This document shows positions 2,712 through 29,153 of a DNA stretch of 64,000 nt, in pieces (position 1 is the first letter of the stretch; every line of letters starts with the position of its first letter). The DNA comes from Escherichia phage vB_EcoM_IME392. The notes beneath the pieces were generated by a model. It made no database searches. It saw only the letters and a list, made by a program, of their open reading frames with translations, and was not told where the DNA came from. The translations under genes and the position numbers were made by a program. The stretch is from the sequence record MH719082.1. One strand, 5' to 3'.

Positions 2712-3790
2712 TAAAGAATACCTTCTTTGGTAAAGTAGTCTATTACTTCATCCTGAAGTTCTTGTGCGTAATCCTTGCGCAGATATAGATTCTCATACTG
2801 ATGTTTCAGCAGAGCATCACGATCTTTCAGTTTCTCTGCAATCTCCGCATTACTGGAGACGATCAGAGGAGCCAGTAGCTCTTCGGGGACGCCGCTCCGG
2901 ATTATTGTTCCAGCAGCATCTTTATCCACCAGCATCAGAGTACCAGAGCTCAGGTATTCGTAATAACGGTTAGGTGGGCTGGTATAGAACGAATTACTGG
3001 AGTTCCAGTCTTCGATAAGCAGTACCGCTGCATATTTAGCCACTTCATCCAGCATCTCTGACAGCTTAAACTTAGGCAGCCAGTTAATCGGAGCAGCAGG
3101 TCCCAGCCACTTACGTTCTTTAGGATCCAGCTCTTCCCAGTTTTCCTGCTCGTAGCCGTCAAATCCTGCAAGACCACCAGTATGTTTAGCGATGGACATC
3201 TGAGCTTTGTAGCTCGGCACCGACATAAACAGTTCCAGACCATCTTGCTGGGAGAAGTACTGAGTGAACTTATGGAAGCGGCCTTCACGAGCAGCACCGT
3301 AATACAGCAGGCTATTGTCCGGCTTATCTGACGATCCATAGCGAGGCTTACGACCAGGAACGTAGGTAAGACGGTTCCAGTTAATGTGATGATAGTTCTC
3401 TTCGCTAGGAGAATACTGATTACCCCAGGAAGTACGTTCAAATGCTGCTACAACTTTAAATACAGTAGCTGCGGTGATGTGTCTCCACTGCGGACCCTGG
3501 ATACGCATCTTAGACGAGTAATCCTGTCCAATCCAGTAGAACTTAGCTCCGACATCTGCCTGGTCTACCCAGAACTTATACATCTCGTCGCGGAACTTAC
3601 AGAAGGTAGGAACACCATTGATGGCGATAATCACGTCATATTTAGTGCCATCTTCCATAGCCTTAACGAACTTAGGAGTATCGTCCAACAGGTCAGCTTG
3701 AAGTCCGTAGGCTAACCAGGAAGCCAGAGTATTACTGGCAATGATGGATTTATCGCTGCATGGCGAAAAGTTAGTTACTGCAATCTTCAT
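2711..3790 (-). CDS. T4 beta-glucosyltransferase-like DNA glycosyltransferase (GT-B, GT63-like)
   Basis: 359 aa versus 351 aa for T4 BGT. Colinear matches to my recollection of T4 BGT: MKIAVTNFS / MKIAIINMG; YDVIIAINGVPTF / YDRLIVVNSSINF; LLYYGAAREGRFHKF / DVIYGGSFRSGQRESK; AAVLLIEDWNSSNSF...TLMLVDKD / IAALIIGDKNYNDNF...AVMLIDEE. Confidence 0.6.
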   Translation of the reverse strand: MKIAVTNFSPCSDKSIIASNTLASWLAYGLQADLLDDTPKFVKAMEDGTKYDVIIAINGVPTFCKFRDEMYKFWVDQADVGAKFYWIGQDYSSKMRIQGPQWRHITAATVFKVVAAFERTSWGNQYSPSEENYHHINWNRLTYVPGRKPRYGSSDKPDNSLLYYGAAREGRFHKFTQYFSQQDGLELFMSVPSYKAQMSIAKHTGGLAGFDGYEQENWEELDPKERKWLGPAAPINWLPKFKLSEMLDEVAKYAAVLLIEDWNSSNSFYTSPPNRYYEYLSSGTLMLVDKDAAGTIIRSGVPEELLAPLIVSSNAEIAEKLKDRDALLKHQYENLYLRKDYAQELQDEVIDYFTKEGIL

Positions 3791-8713: not shown

Positions 8714-8739
8714 GTTCTGTCCTCATTAGTTTCGACACC

Positions 8740-8770
8740 TTAACAGCCTTTGGAGCCGTAAAAGAAGTGG
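8740..8770 (-). promoter_or_regulatory. Conserved promoter-like motif, copy 5
   Basis: Minus strand reads CCACTTCTTTTACGGCTCCAAAGGCTGTTAA followed by GGT. It sits between the 8785-8812 terminator and ATG 8713. Confidence 0.6.
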
Positions 8771-18056: not shown

Positions 18057-18117
18057 CTTTGTGATCTCTATTTAAACAATGTTTCAACAATCATAATCAG
18101 AGTTGCCCTCTGACACC

Positions 18118-18148
18118 TTAACAGCCTTTCGACCCTCCAAAAGAGCGG
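18118..18148 (-). promoter_or_regulatory. Conserved promoter-like motif, copy 7
   Basis: Minus strand reads CCGCTCTTTTGGAGGGTCGAAAGGCTGTTAA followed by GGTGTCAGAGG, the same downstream string as copy 3. It lies about 60 nt before ATG 18056. Confidence 0.6.
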
Positions 18149-24348: not shown

Positions 24349-25140
24349 TCAGTACCGAGGATCAGTATCCTGATAGTCGCGAATTAGGTCATAGACGAGC
24401 ACATCCAGACGAGTAGCATCTTCACGTTTCATGCGGGTAGGTCTGTACATATGGATACATACACAATGCTTAGACCAGACCTTAGCAGTCTGACGCTCCG
24501 TAAGTTCTTTACGGTCGATAATGTACTTCTCGAATGCGTGATAAGAGATAGGCTTTGATACTTCGACATGCTGGCACATATCGAGGAACTGCGGGTAGTC
24601 GTCAGTTAAGAAGCGACTGAATACGTCCTGGTAATAAGAGTAGTTAGGGAATTTACCACCCTGCTCCAGAGATAACGCATGAGTCTCGATCTCCTTCAAC
24701 ATCAGAGCCATAAATTCCTGATTATTGCTGGGAGAGGTCCACATGTTTATCTCGCAGTAATCTAACCGAGGGGAATAAACACGTACCTGAGTCTCGTGAG
24801 GAGTATACGTTTCGTGAGGGCTTCTGATAAAGAGAGTATCAGCATCTACATAGGAGTAACCACGAAGATCCATCATTACCTGAATCTTGAGTCGCAGATA
24901 GTCACATACAGAGGCCATCTTAGCCTTAGTTTTCAGGATATTATACGCCTTCTCCATAATAGGATCTCTGGCGAATAAATCCTGGATCATAACGCAACGG
25001 CAACCTTCGATAATATTCTCTTCGTTATCGATCACCAGTACATGATCATTAGGTCCGTATTTCTGTAAGGACTTAATGCATTCCCGAACATGGATAGGCA
25101 TTTTGGGTCCTACCCAAAGCTGGAAATAATTCTGACTCAT
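24349..25140 (-). CDS. GT32-like (DXD sugar-binding) glycosyltransferase
   Basis: FQLWVGPKMP (GT32 N-terminal IWIG..lP), ASVCDYLRLKI (SD.lRy block), YSYVDADTLF (DxD). RBS GAGGT lies before ATG 25140. Confidence 0.55.
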   Translation of the reverse strand: MSQNYFQLWVGPKMPIHVRECIKSLQKYGPNDHVLVIDNEENIIEGCRCVMIQDLFARDPIMEKAYNILKTKAKMASVCDYLRLKIQVMMDLRGYSYVDADTLFIRSPHETYTPHETQVRVYSPRLDYCEINMWTSPSNNQEFMALMLKEIETHALSLEQGGKFPNYSYYQDVFSRFLTDDYPQFLDMCQHVEVSKPISYHAFEKYIIDRKELTERQTAKVWSKHCVCIHMYRPTRMKREDATRLDVLVYDLIRDYQDTDPRY

Positions 25141-25775
25141 AGTTACCTCTATGTTATTTATTTTAAACTGGATAGGGACTAATAAAGTAAATAGTAATTA
25201 AATACTTATTAATCTTCCTCTTATCTAATGCTAAGGGAAGCGTACTCGAGGAGTACAGAAGCTTAGCGAAGAGCGGAGTAACCATTTGATTTAAACAGTC
25301 ACCGTAGAGAGCGAAGGAGTCGCGCCCGCTTGAGGCGGCGCGACCTCCGCTTCACCAATCCTACCGGATGGACGCCTGCGACCACCCGAGCCTACCCCTG
25401 CCTCACTCACTAAAGCCACTTCGGGCTTTACCTCGTTCCGCTACGCGATACGCAGGCAGATAGCTACACTAAGTCCCCTGGAGATGGCTAGTAAGTATCC
25501 GTTACCAGACCATGTCCAACCTAACATTGACGAAGCCAGGGACTAGGCACTCCTCGCCAATAAGCTACATTAGGATTTATGTCCGTATTTCGAAGATAGG
25601 CCGATCGGGGAGACTATGCATTCATCTCTGCTCAACCAGGAAGCACCGATTAGGGTAAATACCCAAACTATCTTCTTAATGTCACTCCTCCCAGACCGCT
25701 TCGGGACTTAGCTTAAGTCTTATCCGAATAATCTGGCATCTACGACGGACCGTAGTGTATGGAGCGTACTGCAAT
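25141..25775 (-). ncRNA. Candidate ~630-nt structured non-coding RNA or giant 5' leader
   Basis: Immediately downstream (minus strand) of motif copy 10. No ORF >=60 aa in any frame. Locally GC-rich: 43/60 GC at 25321-25380 versus 23/60 in the neighbouring coding line 25021-25080. Multiple hairpins and long-range complementarities (see findings). Confidence 0.35.
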
Positions 25776-25806
25776 TTAACAGCCTTTTGACTCATCAAAA
25801 GAGCGT
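25776..25806 (-). promoter_or_regulatory. Conserved promoter-like motif, copy 10
   Basis: Minus strand reads ACGCTCTTTTGATGAGTCAAAAGGCTGTTAA followed by ATT. It contains a perfect 7-bp dyad CTTTTGA/TCAAAAG. Confidence 0.55.
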
Positions 25807-25923
25807 AATTAGGGCCCGATTATTTCACTTAGCTTCCATCCGTTCGGGCCAACACGGATCGTACATGACGTTACCGTCGTTTCAAGTCACTCGGATTATT
25901 AGTTCCCGGTGCTCATATAAAGA

Positions 25924-25952
25924 TGGTGCCACGTAGGGAATCGAACCCTATA
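25924..25952 (-). pseudogene. tRNA-like 3' fragment (T-arm + acceptor 3' strand + CCA)
   Basis: Minus strand reads TAGGGTTCGATTCCCTACGTGGCACCA, a canonical T-arm. No matching 5' acceptor strand, D-arm or 7-nt anticodon loop could be folded from the upstream ~100 nt. Confidence 0.3.
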
Positions 25953-26065
25953 TCAGGTAAACGTCTAGCCGTAGACTGCTGAGTGCCCTCAGCTACCCTA
26001 TCACTTAACCGAACCATCGGCAAATCTTTCACAGATACTTACACGTGATTTTCTCTGATCGGATC

Positions 26066-26092
26066 TGGTGATTCCTCGGAGTCGAACCGAGG
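26066..26092 (-). pseudogene. tRNA-like 3' fragment (T-arm + ACCA-like end)
   Basis: Minus strand reads CCTCGGTTCGACTCCGAGGAATCACCA. It starts only about 12 nt after the CCA of tRNA-Met, so there is no room for a 5' half. Confidence 0.3.
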
Positions 26093-26104
26093 AGTGGCAT
26101 AATA

Positions 26105-26180
26105 TGGTGGTCCATACTGGTTTCGAACCAGTGACCAAGCGATTATGAGTCGCCTGCTCTCACCACTGAGCTAATGGACC
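26105..26180 (-). tRNA. tRNA with CAU anticodon (elongator Met, or Ile2 if lysidinylated)
   Basis: Hand-folded cloverleaf: GGTCCAT-TA-GCTC-AGTGGTGA-GAGC-A-GGCGA-CTCATAA-TCGCT-TGGTC-ACTGG-TTCGAAA-CCAGT-ATGGACC-A-CCA. All stems are perfect. G1-C72, so not an initiator. Confidence 0.9.
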
Positions 26181-26649
26181 GAACTAGATTGAGCGATAGG
26201 CTATGGAGTACCTTACCATCGGGCGTCTTTCGCTAAATAGCCCATCATGGGCTACCGCAGGGGCATGACACCTATCGCTCAAATTGGTCGGGATCGTGGC
26301 CCACGTCGGAGGATTTGCCAAACTCCCCATTATCATAGCCTAAGCTATCCAGACGGCCGTAACTACCCTGCTCCGGTACATGCGATAATGGGGACGTATC
26401 CAAAGATGTGGAGATCCCGTTAAAATATCTTAAGCTTCTCGCTATGTGTGTCCTACACTCTACCCTTGCGGGGTACCGGAGGATGAATCCGAACTTCCTG
26501 CGACCACACACGGAGGCCCTTGCAGACGTGCTTTATTGCGCTCATCCTGGCATAGCGAGAACTTAAGATATCTATTGATGCGCACCAGATAAGTATTTCC
26601 CAAGCCATGAACTTAATCTGGGATCTTGACCTATCCAGTGCGACTTATG
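26181..26649 (-). ncRNA. 469-nt structured inter-tRNA spacer (processing substrate or independent ncRNA)
   Basis: 12-bp perfect long-range helix 26189-26200 / 26271-26282. 21-bp helix with one bulged C, 26425-26446 / 26551-26571. Nested hairpins such as tagccca-tca-tgggcta at 26238-26254. Confidence 0.35.
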
Positions 26650-26725
26650 TGGTACTCCCTACTGGATTCGAACCAGTGACCGTCGGTTTAGAAGACCGAT
26701 GCTCTATCCTCTGAGCTAAGGGAGC
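26650..26725 (-). tRNA. tRNA-Arg (UCU)
   Basis: Hand-folded cloverleaf: GCTCCCT-TA-GCTC-AGAGGATA-GAGC-A-TCGGT-CTTCTAA-ACCGA-CGGTC-ACTGG-TTCGAAT-CCAGT-AGGGAGT-A-CCA. G1-U72 wobble, other stems perfect. Reads the rare AGA codon. Confidence 0.9.
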
Positions 26726-26735
26726 TTAACTTTAG

Positions 26736-26802
26736 GATGACCTCTTAGCTTACCATCGCGAAAGCTACATGGAGTGTAGTTAACGTGAACTAAGAGGTCA
26801 TC
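26736..26802 (-). other. 13-bp-stem hairpin immediately 5' of tRNA-Arg
   Basis: gatgacctcttag (26736-26748) pairs with ctaagaggtcatc (26790-26802). The loop holds two small hairpins and shares cttaccatcg and atggagt strings with the element 5' of tRNA-Met. Confidence 0.5.
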
Positions 26803-26812
26803 ATAAAATCAG

Positions 26813-26905
26813 TTACTGACGAATTATACTTTCCCAACCATCCACATATACTGCGTTGGCTATGTAAAGAATGCAGAACAAGCCAACGATTAAAGGATTA
26901 ATCAT
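26813..26905 (-). CDS. Possible 30-aa hydrophobic micro-protein
   Basis: Below the track cutoff. Minus strand reads GGAGAAGTACA-ATG ATT AAT CCT..., giving MINPLIVGLFCILYIANAVYVDGWESIIRQ*. Single TM-like segment with a good SD. Confidence 0.3.
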   Translation of the reverse strand: MINPLIVGLFCILYIANAVYVDGWESIIRQ

Positions 26906-27302
26906 TGTACTTCTCCATTTAATTAAGTTACCTGCTTACTGTTACAGGGACGCCGTTCGTCGCGCCAGATTACCAATTGGCGTATTAAGCCAATCTCGCC
27001 AACCGCGTAACGCCATTGGCTGGTATCACATAGGCTTGTAGCCCTCAGTCAACCTATCCTGAGGATGAAGATCAGATACTCTCTAACGGCGGGATTGATA
27101 GTCCCAGAGTACGATCTCTTTGCCATTCTCGTATGACCTAGGAGACGACTGCCCTGGTTAAGGAGACCAGACAGCTGATATGGTTTAGTTTATTTTTAAT
27201 TTGAGTCCCACTCATACCTTACAGACTCAAGCACTGCAGACCACCATGAAGCCGACTCGTACGCTAACAGTCGACACCACGGATCCATGAAACTCCAACA
27301 AT

Positions 27303-27333
27303 TTAACAGCCTTTCGACTCATCAAAAGAGTGT
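27303..27333 (-). promoter_or_regulatory. Conserved promoter-like motif, copy 11
   Basis: Minus strand reads ACACTCTTTTGATGAGTCGAAAGGCTGTTAA followed by ATT. No ORF follows for about 400 nt. Confidence 0.5.
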
Positions 27334-27485
27334 TAAATTGTCCGCTCCCTATCACCGAGCACTGTGATGATGGGAAAATAGGGAGCGAAGCGATTCCTAA
27401 GTTTTATCTCTTCTCTAAGTGATTAACCGTTACATACGATGTACCTTCTCGAAAGAATTAAGCCGGTATTGGCACTTCAGACACT

Positions 27486-27516
27486 TTAACAGCCTTTCGA
27501 CCGTACAAAAGAGCGG
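27486..27516 (-). promoter_or_regulatory. Conserved promoter-like motif, copy 12
   Basis: Minus strand reads CCGCTCTTTTGTACGGTCGAAAGGCTGTTAA followed by AGT. The 31-mer is identical to copy 15. Confidence 0.5.
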
Positions 27517-27521
27517 CGTAA

Positions 27522-28064
27522 TTAGACGCTCGCCTCAGGCACTTTAACAGCCTTTGGACGTGTAAAAAGAGCGGGATTATACCATTCTGGGGTACGATAG
27601 AAAGAGATCTTACGACCCTCTTTCTTCCAGAAGTAGAATTTATCGTTGAGGTAGTTACGGTACTTCTCGTAGACTGTCTCACCAGGAGCACCTGATACAC
27701 ATGCATACGGAGTCATATCGGTCTCTGGACCTACTACCAGATTTTTAGGTAGTGCCACAAGACGGGATAAAATTTCTTCGGTTGCATGGAGCCGTCCGGT
27801 ACGTTCAAAGAATAGCATGCATAAATAGCTTGCCAAGTCACGAACGAAGTTGTAGTTACCTGACGATTCACGAACCCACTTAGCACACGGATGATTAACA
27901 TGCGTCTGCTTATAAATACCCTCGATAGCGTTTTCGCCATCCAGAACATGATGAGCAGTAGATAATAACTGAGCACACTCAATAATCATTTTATTCTGGT
28001 GCATAGGCATACAGTGGTCCATAGCACATTCTAACGCATCTTCGTGAGTACGGAAAATATTCAC
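27522..28064 (-). CDS. Conserved hypothetical 180-aa protein (THVNHPCAKW motif)
   Basis: GTG start with AGGAGTAATTATT upstream. The KMIIECAQLLSTAHH...YKQTHVNHPCAKWVRES block is one I recall seeing in unrelated phages, function unknown. The last ~17 codons overlap motif copy 13. Confidence 0.55.
   Translation of the reverse strand: MNIFRTHEDALECAMDHCMPMHQNKMIIECAQLLSTAHHVLDGENAIEGIYKQTHVNHPCAKWVRESSGNYNFVRDLASYLCMLFFERTGRLHATEEILSRLVALPKNLVVGPETDMTPYACVSGAPGETVYEKYRNYLNDKFYFWKKEGRKISFYRTPEWYNPALFTRPKAVKVPEASV
27544..27574 (-). promoter_or_regulatory. Conserved promoter-like motif, copy 13
   Basis: Minus strand reads CCGCTCTTTTTACACGTCCAAAGGCTGTTAA followed by AGT. It lies 58 nt upstream of copy 12. 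Confidence 0.5.
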
Positions 28065-28148
28065 AATAATTACTCCTAACGTGGTTGCTTACTTTAAGTC
28101 TCTCGTGAAAGATTTAGAGTAAGCATCGGAGGAATTACCTCCGACACT

Positions 28149-28179
28149 TTAACAGCCTTTCGACGGCACAAAAGAGCGG
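28149..28179 (-). promoter_or_regulatory. Conserved promoter-like motif, copy 14
   Basis: Minus strand reads CCGCTCTTTTGTGCCGTCGAAAGGCTGTTAA followed by AGTGT, then the hairpin CGGAGG-TAATT-CCTCCG. Confidence 0.55.
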
Positions 28180-28181
28180 TT

Positions 28182-28343
28182 TTAAATTTTACATGCATCT
28201 CCGCAGTCGTCGTCACCAGGCTGGCTGATAACTTCGTCTACGTTAACCATGCGATCTTCTACACGACGAGATGCCTCGTCTAATTCTTCCTGAGATGGGA
28301 GATTGGAGAAATCCAATTCTTCACCAGATTTATTGCCTGACAT
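28182..28343 (-). CDS. Small acidic 53-aa protein
   Basis: Start placed at ATG 28343 (GGAGTGATT-ATG; MSGNKSGEELDF...DDDCGDACKI). The track start at 28388 lies inside the upstream gene. Confidence 0.45.
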   Translation of the reverse strand: MSGNKSGEELDFSNLPSQEELDEASRRVEDRMVNVDEVISQPGDDDCGDACKI

Positions 28344-28812
28344 AATCACTCCACACGTTAATAACTTCTTTACCACAGGATTTAGCATAGGCTACACAGT
28401 TACCTGTGCCACCCGAACTACCATCCCATAGGGCTAATCCCATCTGACTACGGTTAACCATGTATCGGTTACGCACCATCATCTTGAAGGAATCATACCC
28501 AGGCTCGGACACTATAATTGTGCGACGACTTTTTCTGCATAGCTCAGTCCATTTTTCTGTATCTGCAGATCGCCACATTTTGGGTTGGTCAATCATAGGG
28601 ATTGTTGCAAAGTATGGTATTCCGAGATTGGCACATGCCTGAGCACATGCCATATCCCATCCTAACGCCATACCTATAAACCAGCAGTCCACGCTATTCT
28701 TAGCTGTAAGCTCCTGGATGTGATGTTCGGCAAACTGGGTAAGATGATCATGGCTAAAGTTATCCCATCCACCCAGCTTATCTGGCCTATGACCAGTCAC
28801 GAACATAAACAT
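28330..28812 (-). CDS. SLOG-superfamily protein of the YpsA/DUF1273 type
   Basis: Colinear with my recollection of B. subtilis YpsA: VTGHRPDKLG / ITGYKPFELG; IGMALGWDMACAQAC / ISGQLGVELWAAEAA; TIPMIDQPKMW / ITPFYEQEKNW; GLALWDGSSGGTGNCV / LLLLYDPEKEGSPKYM. Confidence 0.65.
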   Translation of the reverse strand: MFMFVTGHRPDKLGGWDNFSHDHLTQFAEHHIQELTAKNSVDCWFIGMALGWDMACAQACANLGIPYFATIPMIDQPKMWRSADTEKWTELCRKSRRTIIVSEPGYDSFKMMVRNRYMVNRSQMGLALWDGSSGGTGNCVAYAKSCGKEVINVWSDYVRQ

Positions 28813-29153
28813 TACTTCTTGCCCATCTTAGCCTGCATAGCACGGACGGTATCCATGGCGCTGGCCAATTTGGCTGAAGTATCCTGCGGACCATCTTCTT
28901 CTAGCTGTTTCTTAAGGGACTCCATACGATCAGTAGTACCCTTAGTATCCATCTCGATTAATTCGTTGATGGTCGAACCACCCACGTTAGGTAACTTACC
29001 CAGCTGAGTAAGATCCTTAACTTCTGGGATTTTAACATGAAGTTGAATAGACTGGGATGCTCTCGCGAACGACCCAGCACGACGATTGTCTCCTACCTTA
29101 TTGTACAGGGAAGATAGGTTACCCAGGAACGTAATGATATCAGCAGTTTTCAT
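28812..29153 (-). CDS. Stand-alone DNA polymerase beta N-terminal (8-kDa, HhH, dRP-lyase-type) domain protein
   Basis: Start placed at ATG 29153 (GGAGGAATCAAAT-ATG). IITFLGNLSSLYNKVGDNRRAGSFARASQSIQ...LGKLPNVGGSTINELIEMDTKG parallels the Pol beta segment ITDMLTELANFEKNV...YNAYRKAASVIAK...[22 protein letters not shown]. Confidence 0.55.
   Translation of the reverse strand: MKTADIITFLGNLSSLYNKVGDNRRAGSFARASQSIQLHVKIPEVKDLTQLGKLPNVGGSTINELIEMDTKGTTDRMESLKKQLEEDGPQDTSAKLASAMDTVRAMQAKMGKK

Follow-up and report, generated by a model that had tools for sequence, protein, structure and literature searches.

A conserved block of about 330 nt within a possible long 5' leader upstream of a weakly glycosyltransferase-like gene in Escherichia phage vB_EcoM_IME392

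Phage T4 encodes, in its transfer RNA (tRNA) cluster, the stable RNAs C and D (species 1 and 2), which are ~120-140 nucleotides (nt) long, are co-transcribed and matured like tRNAs, and have no known function. RNase III processing hairpins of the T7 type sit between early genes. GOLLD and ROOL are large (500-800 nt) phage RNAs without open reading frames (ORFs) that often lie by tRNA islands; one GOLLD RNA is found downstream of a tRNA-Met gene, and one half of GOLLD is well conserved and the other half poorly conserved (PMC12286853). Vibrio phage ICP1 produces an abundant RNA of ~800 nt, with an unknown role, from an ORF-less gap of ~1 kilobase (kb) (PMC7567579). Here we describe a segment of Escherichia phage vB_EcoM_IME392 (record MH719082.1), at positions 25141-25775 of a 64,000-nt stretch that was analysed as a whole and is called the window below. 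An initial annotation had presented this segment as promoter-driven, GC-rich, highly structured and free of ORFs, and had proposed it as a novel, large non-coding RNA (ncRNA) with no known equivalent in coliphages; the last point overlooks T4 stable RNAs C and D. We find that the element is promoter-proximal, conserved under selection, devoid of a conventional gene and restricted to one lineage. It is either non-coding or micro-coding and belongs to no known family; probably it is a novel RNA of a regulatory or other non-coding type.

Every gene between position 1 and ~29200 of the window lies on the minus strand, and the segment must therefore be read on that strand. In this orientation it extends, as had been annotated, from a copy of a promoter-like motif (25775-25803) to the gene at 24349-25140, the start codon of which is at 25140. 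Additional haplotypes were obtained through exact-protein look-ups of the members of the neighbour gene's cluster; six loci held the whole segment, and two further look-up loci that lacked the upstream region were left out. The comparison set consisted of seven sequences, about five of them distinct, that were at least 83% identical and fell into two shallow clades. Between the clades, the spacer upstream of the motif was ~74% identical, block 25790-25441 was 97.5-98.4% identical, 25459-25300 was 83-88% identical, and 25299-25141 was 85-86% identical with several indels of 1-3 nt. Within the block, 50-nt intervals from 25790 to 25441 were identical at 48-50 of their 50 positions. The constrained part of the segment, which we call the core, covers 25441-25768 on the minus strand (~330 nt, 47% GC).

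Divergence of the core between the clades (1.6-1.9%) was comparable to that of codon positions 1 and 2 of the neighbour genes (1.4-2.4%), and it was 6-9 times below that of the four-fold sites of these genes (11-15%; Fisher p = 1e-7 to 1e-11). Four-fold divergence was 9-12% in the adjacent gene alone, and the non-coding flanks of the core diverged by 13-26%. Constraint extends beyond the small ORFs described below: the remainder of the core had 3-4 differences in 130 nt (p = 8e-5 to 3e-3). From these data we conclude that the core is under purifying selection, and that the real signal in this segment is a ~330-nt constrained block whose base composition is unremarkable; the rate at which the GC-rich hairpin region evolves is roughly neutral. 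Conservation among relatives, to which the initial annotation had looked for support, was thus found as strong purifying selection on this block, whereas the evidence that it had chosen, GC richness and visible hairpins, lies mostly within the part that evolves at the neutral rate.

Low divergence might also be expected of a functionless relic, such as a decayed tRNA or mobile element, that had recently recombined between phage lineages. In the 2.4 kb around the segment, hairpin modules, pseudo-tRNAs and tRNA genes form a mosaic whose content varies between genomes, and variants within the core are themselves mosaic across the clades: TC at 25729-25728 is present in relative EP_H11 and in haplotypes L005 and L012, and not in haplotype L009. 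However, three clade-fixed differences remain within the core, which makes a very recent sweep unlikely, and the sequences immediately on either side of it diverge at the neutral rate or faster. Elsewhere in the cluster, non-coding DNA (27300-26931) is ~10% divergent with indels, the segment contains no tRNA-like T-arm, and relaxed ARAGORN calls were at the level of noise. We consider a relic of this kind very unlikely.

The motif copy that precedes the segment on the minus strand (25775-25803) reads CTCTTTT-N6-TC-N-AAAGGCTGTTAAA, followed by TTG. A fuller form, CCG-CTCTTTT-N6-TC-N-AAAGGCTGTTAAA-KTG, describes sites spread over 1682-29200 of the window. Eleven copies with up to 3 mismatches were found in the window, all on the minus strand, compared with 0 expected; examples from the motif scan are 8739-8767, 18117-18145, 27302-27330, 27485-27513, 27543-27571 and 28148-28176. 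The copies end 18-35 nt, and up to ~90 nt, upstream of start codons, and one directly follows a canonical intrinsic terminator (8812-8791). Ahead of the tRNA cluster, three copies stand in tandem in a span of 270 nt. The N6 portion forms the loop of a covarying hairpin (CUUUUGA/UCAAAAG, CUUUUG/CGAAAG and CCUUUG/CAAAGG; in general CUUUUG/CRAAAG). The 3' half of the motif, TGTTAAAKT, appears to resemble an extended -10 element. Taking these features together, we infer that the motif is a phage-specific promoter, from which transcription of the segment would start at about 25766-25769. The copy at 25775-25803 is the sole one followed by more than 600 nt that lack a canonical ribosome-binding site and start codon, and the next copy downstream of it is at 18145. 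Hence the description of the segment as promoter-driven agrees with its position downstream of an over-represented, gene-oriented motif that probably functions as a promoter. The 5' part of the motif, CGCTCTTTT, looks like boxA; a boxA/nut-like reading was set aside because the motif lies 18-35 nt from start codons, as a promoter would. A weak motif copy at 5581-5547 (minus strand) has a strong intrinsic terminator (5541-5515) no more than 6 nt downstream, which would be odd for a promoter.

A terminator scan of the minus strand from 24900 to 27800 identified no terminator-like site, and so none between the motif and the gene; canonical U-tract terminators are present elsewhere in the phage. 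The absence of a terminator indicates that an RNA started at this motif would be, at least initially, the 5' leader of the operon messenger RNA (mRNA) rather than the discrete ncRNA of ~0.6 kb that had been proposed. The gene that follows (24349-25140, minus strand) encodes a 263-amino-acid protein and is the first canonical gene of a unit that reaches the helicase gene; the helicase and other replication genes lie downstream of the segment. This gene had been labelled GT32-like. It does stand at the end of the segment as reported, and the glycosyltransferase assignment itself is weak (Pfam PF04488, E = 5.5e-4, 21 bits, under the 23-bit cut-off). In a search of 5.8 billion proteins, homologues of the 263-amino-acid protein were found only within its own phage lineage and 90% cluster.

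Our preferred reading, which we put forward tentatively, is that the segment is a new and unusually long (~630 nt) structured 5' leader of the glycosyltransferase-helicase operon. According to this model, transcription would start at the phage-specific motif at 25775-25803, and RNA polymerase would read through into the gene without meeting an intrinsic terminator. The first ~330 nt (25768-25441) would form a constrained RNA domain with a cis-acting role: by binding a factor or the ribosome, it would set the level of transcript or translation that reaches the operon. The next ~140 nt would serve as a fast-evolving platform of alternative helices together with a 20-base-pair (bp) GC hairpin, a possible processing site or stability element, and the AT-rich end would supply the ribosome-binding site of the gene. 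Translation of the small ORFs in the core might select the downstream fold, as in attenuation of the leader-peptide type. The order of a conserved 5' domain, a variable hairpin region and a gene resembles that of known cis-regulatory leaders and was counted in favour of this reading. Like riboswitches, T-boxes and trpL-type attenuators, the segment combines a promoter-like element, a conserved 5' domain, putative alternative helices, a GC hairpin and a ribosome-binding site, and its identity falls from a sensor-like part to a platform-like part (97.5-98.4% in the core, 83-88% in the next 160 nt and 85-86% in the last 160 nt).

A fold derived from the alignment predicts for the core four hairpin domains and a short 3-bp hairpin, closed by a 12-bp long-range helix that pairs 25759-25747 with 25476-25465. 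Nearly all substitutions fit this prediction (U.G to C-G, U-A to U.G, G.U to A-U and G-C to G.U), and the alignment fold has 200 pairs, with 99.8% of the cells paired. The single-sequence minimum free energy (MFE) structure was rejected as a model, since other haplotypes break many of its pairs. One part that appears in the single-sequence MFE structure, the centroid and the alignment fold is a predicted 5' hairpin domain at 25681-25746 (minus strand), comprising GACUUA-AGC-UAAGUC (25705-25719) and the stem CCAGAUU/GGUCUGG; having few variable sites, it receives weak support from the comparison. In the register of the alignment fold, the AT to TC change at 25729-25728 converts a U.G pair to C-G.

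Downstream of the core, the variable platform (25364-25460, minus strand) is composed of several elements and is 83-88% identical between the clades, at about the neutral rate. For structure, the variable part offers better evidence than the core. It includes a local hairpin (25437-25460), an invariant hairpin, UAAAGCC-CGAAGU-GGCUUUA (25411-25430), a hairpin with a hypervariable loop (25364-25389), a G-rich stretch, and a long-range helix, GCCUGCG/CGCAGGC, formed by 25457-25451 and 25380-25374, with the partner strand 70 nt downstream. In L005, L009 and L012 the long-range helix is GCCUACG(UC)/(GG)CGUAGGC: one pair is fully compensated and two more are gained. This compensated helix is adopted in the MFE structure of the second-clade haplotype. 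GCCUGCG has an alternative partner in the local hairpin at 25460-25437, which is also compatible with the substitutions (G.U to A-U and U.G to U-A). The two pairings compete and are mutually exclusive, and only three haplotypes bear on them. The platform is not thermodynamically exceptional (z = -0.5 to -1.2).

The platform is followed by a bulged, GC-rich hairpin of ~20 bp at 25307-25353 (minus strand), GAAGCGGAGGUCGCGCC...GGCGCGACUCCUUCGCUCUC. Its folding energies in three haplotypes were -28.4, -32.4 and -33.3 kcal/mol (z = -3.4 to -3.9), and it was the sole individually significant sub-part of the segment. The stem is invariant, and the tip varies by compensated substitutions and an indel of 2-3 nt. 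Since the UUCGCU 'tail' pairs into the stem, there is no free U tract, and no intrinsic terminator was called. We suggest that the hairpin may be an RNase III-type processing site or a stabiliser. Like T7 RNase III hairpins, it has a bulged stem of ~20 bp, would lie in a long phage transcript shortly before a gene, and combines a conserved stem with a tip that can vary; unlike them, it is GC-rich and lies inside a much longer conserved leader, and its cleavage is putative. The last part of the segment is an AT-rich variable spacer (25141-25306, minus strand; 33% GC) that ends in the Shine-Dalgarno sequence of the gene, GAGG; a local hairpin seen in the window within this spacer is not kept in the other clade.

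These results bear on the composition and structure that had been assigned to the segment. The five pairings reported by eye are all present in the sequence, in plus-strand coordinates: ggagtcgcgcc (25316-25326) with ggcgcgacctcc (25337-25348), aaagcc/ggcttt (25412-25429), the long-range gcctgcg/cgcaggc (25374-25380 with 25451-25457) and agtcccctgg/ccagggact (25472-25481 with 25536-25544), and gactta-gct-taagtc (25705-25719). The local GC peak (43 of 60 nt at 25321-25380) was reproduced, as was the absence of any ORF of at least 60 amino acids in six frames; the longest encodes 48 amino acids and lies on the plus, antisense strand (25512-25658). GC richness holds for 160 nt (25300-25459, 64%) and not for the segment as a whole (47.9%), and the adjacent coding DNA, put at ~38% GC, was measured at 43.9% for the adjacent gene and 45.3% for the window. 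The minus-strand segment gave an MFE z-score of -3.9 with 20 shuffles and -3.84 with 60 shuffles, and the plus strand gave -2.5 to -2.8. Among controls of the same length, glycosyltransferase-like mRNA gave -1.13, and helicase mRNA gave -3.74. As the helicase coding control gives an equal z-score, that of the segment is not distinctive in this genome, and it was dropped as evidence for structure. The term 'highly structured' therefore has weak support for the segment as a whole and applies with significance to the GC hairpin alone; the z-scores of the conserved core and of the GC-rich part were -1.48 and -1.35, respectively.

The base composition could suggest a role at the level of DNA, as an R-loop replication origin of the ColE1 RNA II or T4 oriF type at the head of the replication-gene operon. 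The RNA strand of 25300-25459 is G-rich (62 G compared with 41 C) and is followed by the stretch of 33% GC, with the promoter-like motif upstream and the helicase and other replication genes downstream. This reading is disfavoured because the G-rich and AT-rich parts that such an origin requires are the unconstrained ones, evolving neutrally with indels, whereas the conserved part is the core with 47% GC. No iterons or repeats were found in the segment, and no antisense promoter was detected. An origin of this type appears highly improbable.

Several observations weigh against a structured 5' leader as well. Its conservation may be a general property of leaders in this phage, since another, ordinary leader of 83 nt is also 97.6% conserved. 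The segment is linked to the downstream gene in all seven genomes, with the tRNA cassettes just upstream reshuffled, but this linkage is uninformative because all of the genomes are close relatives. The alignment fold fits the sequences partly by construction, as it was derived from them, and many high-probability pairs of the fold obtained from the window alone are broken in other haplotypes. Double-sided changes occur in only 4 pairs, a number reached by 204 of 500 shuffles; with about five distinct sequences in two shallow clades, a test of covariation is without statistical power. The stability of the core is unexceptional (z about -1.5), and at ~330 nt a sensor domain would far exceed known leaders and aptamers in size, with no match to an aptamer family in Rfam. 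Finally, the terminator of a classical attenuator is absent, the GC hairpin having no U tract, and the candidate leader ORF described next has no canonical start.

Two small ORFs lie within the core on the minus strand, in one frame, and both are intact in all seven genomes. ORF-A (25570-25680) has 36 codons and an ATT start, with GGAGG (25691-25687) 6 nt upstream. Its peptide, (M/I)KKIVWVFTLIGASWLSRDECIVSPIGLSSKYGHKS, is identical in 7 of 7 genomes, and all three of its variable sites are synonymous third positions (GGT/GGC, TCC/TCA and CTA/CTG). The N-terminus is signal-peptide-like, with two lysines (AAG AAG after the ATT) followed by hydrophobic residues. ORF-B (25441-25527; 28 amino acids) has an ATG start and no Shine-Dalgarno sequence, and its two variable sites are a synonymous CTG to CTA change and an Ile to Leu replacement. 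Its stop codon (25443-25441) falls at the 3' boundary of the conserved block, inside the alternative helices, and its last codons contain the 5' strand of the compensated helix; if the ORF were translated, the segment would in this respect resemble a leader-peptide attenuator. No homologue of either peptide was found to be encoded in the 50,697 phage records searched or in PHROGs. Translated small ORFs, the alternative raised by the initial annotation, are thus represented in the block by two candidates with a synonymous pattern of substitution. Canonical small ORFs in the 3' half of the segment (42 amino acids from GTG and 40 from ATG) were rejected, because in the other clade indels disrupt them or the start codon is lost.

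It follows that the block could be conserved for one or two micro-proteins, ORF-A and possibly ORF-B, with the other 300 nt a variable spacer containing hairpins. Four of the five substitutions in the two intact, in-frame ORFs are synonymous third-position changes, compared with ~25% expected by our own estimate (nominal p ~0.016, or ~0.05 when the few open frames are allowed for). The GGAGG sequence 6 nt ahead of ATT AAG AAG, the exact match of the block's end to the stop codon of ORF-B, and the distance of 95 nt from the motif to ORF-A, near that of the longest ordinary leader (84 nt, at 28176), are also consistent with coding. On the other hand, ORF-A has no ATG, GTG or TTG start, and initiation at ATT is very rare; ORF-B has no Shine-Dalgarno sequence; and no homologous peptide is known from the databases searched. 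The 88-nt 5' untranslated region matches the ORFs in conservation (0-2 differences; p = 1e-4 to 6e-3 in comparison with four-fold sites), and a rough Poisson likelihood ratio calculated by hand was ~1.4, so that substitution rates do not separate coding from uniform constraint at the RNA level. The strand is rich in G and U, which by itself yields hydrophobic open frames, and two other small ORFs of the cluster that do have Shine-Dalgarno sequences are unconserved as ORFs. Conservation for micro-proteins is, in our judgement, unlikely, yet the small ORFs are a serious rival to the leader reading, or may form part of a leader mechanism. The two other small ORFs (26813-26905 and 27196-27288, minus strand) each encode 30 amino acids, one of them the strongly hydrophobic MINPLIVGLFCILYIANAVYVDGWESIIRQ; one ORF is disrupted by a frameshift in the other clade, and the second is part of a clade-specific insertion.

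We also compared the segment with known RNA families. A cmscan search of Rfam 15 (4227 families) returned nothing in 25141-25775 at the gathering threshold, and nothing at E<=10 over 2.7 kb. With the laxest filters and a 701-nt query, the best matches were unrelated small RNA and microRNA models (E = 0.8-5), and gathering-threshold scans of four relatives' loci revealed no known RNA family for the element. The claim of novelty accordingly holds against Rfam, and recognisable GOLLD, ROOL, group I and II introns, RNase P, transfer-messenger RNA (tmRNA), riboswitches and small ribozymes are excluded. Besides lacking a match, the element starts at a promoter-like motif and ends at an intact gene with a Shine-Dalgarno sequence and ATG, and a group I intron was rejected. 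A tmRNA or decayed tRNA was also rejected: the 'permuted tmRNA' called by relaxed ARAGORN (25925-26301) is located beyond the segment, has the true tRNA-Met within it and carries a tag that is atypical. No internal repeats or paralogues of the segment were found within the window, and antisense complementarity to other parts of the window reached a maximum of 14 nt, which was judged to be at the level of chance.

The T4 stable RNAs C and D, compared by description, are non-coding RNAs that share with the element a coliphage genome and a place in or next to the phage tRNA cluster; the element differs in its length (330-630 nt), its own copy of the promoter-like motif and the lack of a tRNA-like end. 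GOLLD and ROOL provide a closer parallel in size. Like them, the segment is phage-encoded and follows a tRNA-Met/Arg cluster, and it has one conserved and one variable half. It differs in that their covariance models do not match, the host is enterobacterial, the RNA would be continuous with an mRNA without a terminator, no ornate structure is supported by covariation, and the conserved half is 5' rather than 3' as in GOLLD. The ICP1 RNA, also compared by description, is likewise encoded in a stretch free of ORFs, and its phage is lytic and infects a gamma-proteobacterium; tRNA genes are absent from ICP1, and expression has been demonstrated for ICP1, whereas our element is known from sequence alone.

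By analogy with these RNAs, the segment could yield a free-standing large ncRNA of ~330-470 nt, cut at or near the GC hairpin (e.g. by RNase III) and acting in trans as a functional analogue of GOLLD, ROOL, the ICP1 RNA or the T4 stable RNAs. Its position directly downstream of a variable tRNA cluster, with the tRNA-Met gene of L005 and L012 ~160 nt upstream of the promoter-like motif, matches the frequent location of GOLLD and ROOL near tRNA islands (PMC12286853), and an ORF-less gap is also the source of the ~800-nt ICP1 RNA (PMC7567579). Conservation is uniform over ~330 nt and includes the third positions of every frame, the predicted fold is multi-domain and closed by a 12-bp long-range helix, and the segment would have a promoter copy of its own in addition to read-through from the tRNA promoters. 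The long bulged GC hairpin, with an invariant stem that would suit RNase III in size, could protect the RNA at its 3' end. Against this possibility, GOLLD, ROOL and the other Rfam models were unmatched at E<=10 even with lax filters, no terminator was found in the scan, the folding energy of the core is unexceptional, and no homologue is known beyond one narrow lineage. We regard a free-standing RNA as doubtful, although far from implausible. The fuller proposal, in which the core represents a new class of large phage ncRNA that is transcribed from a phage-specific promoter next to the tRNA cluster, is released at the GC hairpin and acts in trans on translation, tRNA use or host defence, is a shade more doubtful still. 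A long cis-acting leader of the operon is the interpretation that we prefer to these, on the tentative basis given above.

Homologues of the element were found only in about seven near-identical genomes, which belong to a rare lineage of E. coli phages of ~112-116 kb. Megablast and blastn searches of the 50,697 phage records identified EP_H11 as the sole close relative, and the 90% cluster of the neighbour protein adds vB_EcoM_IME392 and a handful of Logan/ENA assemblies. EP_H11 and IME392 have been predicted to carry hypermodified thymidine (PMC12686479; bioRxiv 10.1101/2025.03.26.645540). Judged by the helicase, the closest phages after these are Ralstonia phage RP13 and Acinetobacter phage Ab1-TPeters, at only 34-36% identity, and in the part of Ab1-TPeters inspected, 5 kb between a divergent gene junction and the helicase, there is no comparable large ORF-free gap. 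Complete E. coli genomes contained no homologue of the segment, and IMG/VR returned nothing when searched with the peptide patterns, the promoter-like motif and two 20-mers of the core. In GTDB genomes one core 20-mer was unmatched, and another had two chance matches without flanking similarity. A metagenome scan with the motif identified one JGI contig (L003, Ga0079226_10235719; 1.2 kb), which is 96% identical to the window and equivalent to 27906-29060; two other contigs (L002 and L004) matched the motif and had no similarity to the window. The lineage is present in environmental data only as short fragments, and several Logan contigs break at the repeated promoter-like motifs.

The segment forms the end of an ORF-poor stretch of 2.4 kb (25141-27521), in which tRNA-Arg(UCU), tRNA-Met and pieces of pseudo-tRNAs are also found. 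ARAGORN at default settings called two tRNAs only, tRNA-Met at 26105-26180 and tRNA-Arg at 26650-26725, both on the strand of the segment. The gene just upstream of the ORF-poor region (27522-28064, minus strand) matches PHROG 624, 'DNA binding protein' (E = 7e-42), and has no Pfam match. Relatives carry Met, Arg and Gly tRNA cassettes just upstream of the leader: EP_H11 has all three and one more Rfam tRNA match (L001, 4981-5827), L005 has tRNA-Met only (3123-3199), and L012 has Arg and Met back to back (1309-1464) together with an extra ORF of 210 amino acids without a Pfam match. The spacer between tRNA-Arg and tRNA-Met (26181-26649, minus strand) contains four long hairpin modules and has a z-score of -4.95, beyond that of the segment itself; one module of ~150 nt is closed by ~24 bp (26573-26423), and another is closed by 13 bp (26283-26196). 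The module at 26430-26575 falls within ~500 nt (26430-26931) that are lacking or replaced in EP_H11 and L005, which suggests mobile or cassette-like structured elements.

Fragments of tRNA-like sequence are also present on the minus strand of this region. A pseudo-tRNA at 25925-26003 has a good T-arm and acceptor 3' strand and no proper anticodon loop; the same site holds a real tRNA-Met in L005 and L012. An orphan T-arm and ACCA minihelix (26066-26100) immediately follows tRNA-Met, and a paralogous pseudo-tRNA fragment is found at 27041-27058. Just upstream of the promoter-like motif, at 25812-25849 (minus strand), is a hairpin GGCCCGA...UCGGGCC, of which the other clade keeps the stem with the loop replaced; this hairpin might serve to process or terminate the tRNA transcript that precedes it.

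If the core functions as an RNA, it would represent a large structured RNA or leader without a known family, in an E. coli phage that is amenable to genetics; GOLLD, ROOL and the ICP1 RNA are still without a known function and occur mostly in hosts that are harder to handle. A large RNA acting in trans, if this were true, would be the first counterpart of GOLLD- and ROOL-type RNAs in an enterobacterial phage, and ORF-A, if its translation were confirmed, would add a rare example of a phage micro-protein initiated at ATT. The element heads an operon that contains a lineage-specific glycosyltransferase-like gene and replication genes. As hypermodified thymidine has been predicted by others for this phage, the element could control the timing of DNA modification and replication.

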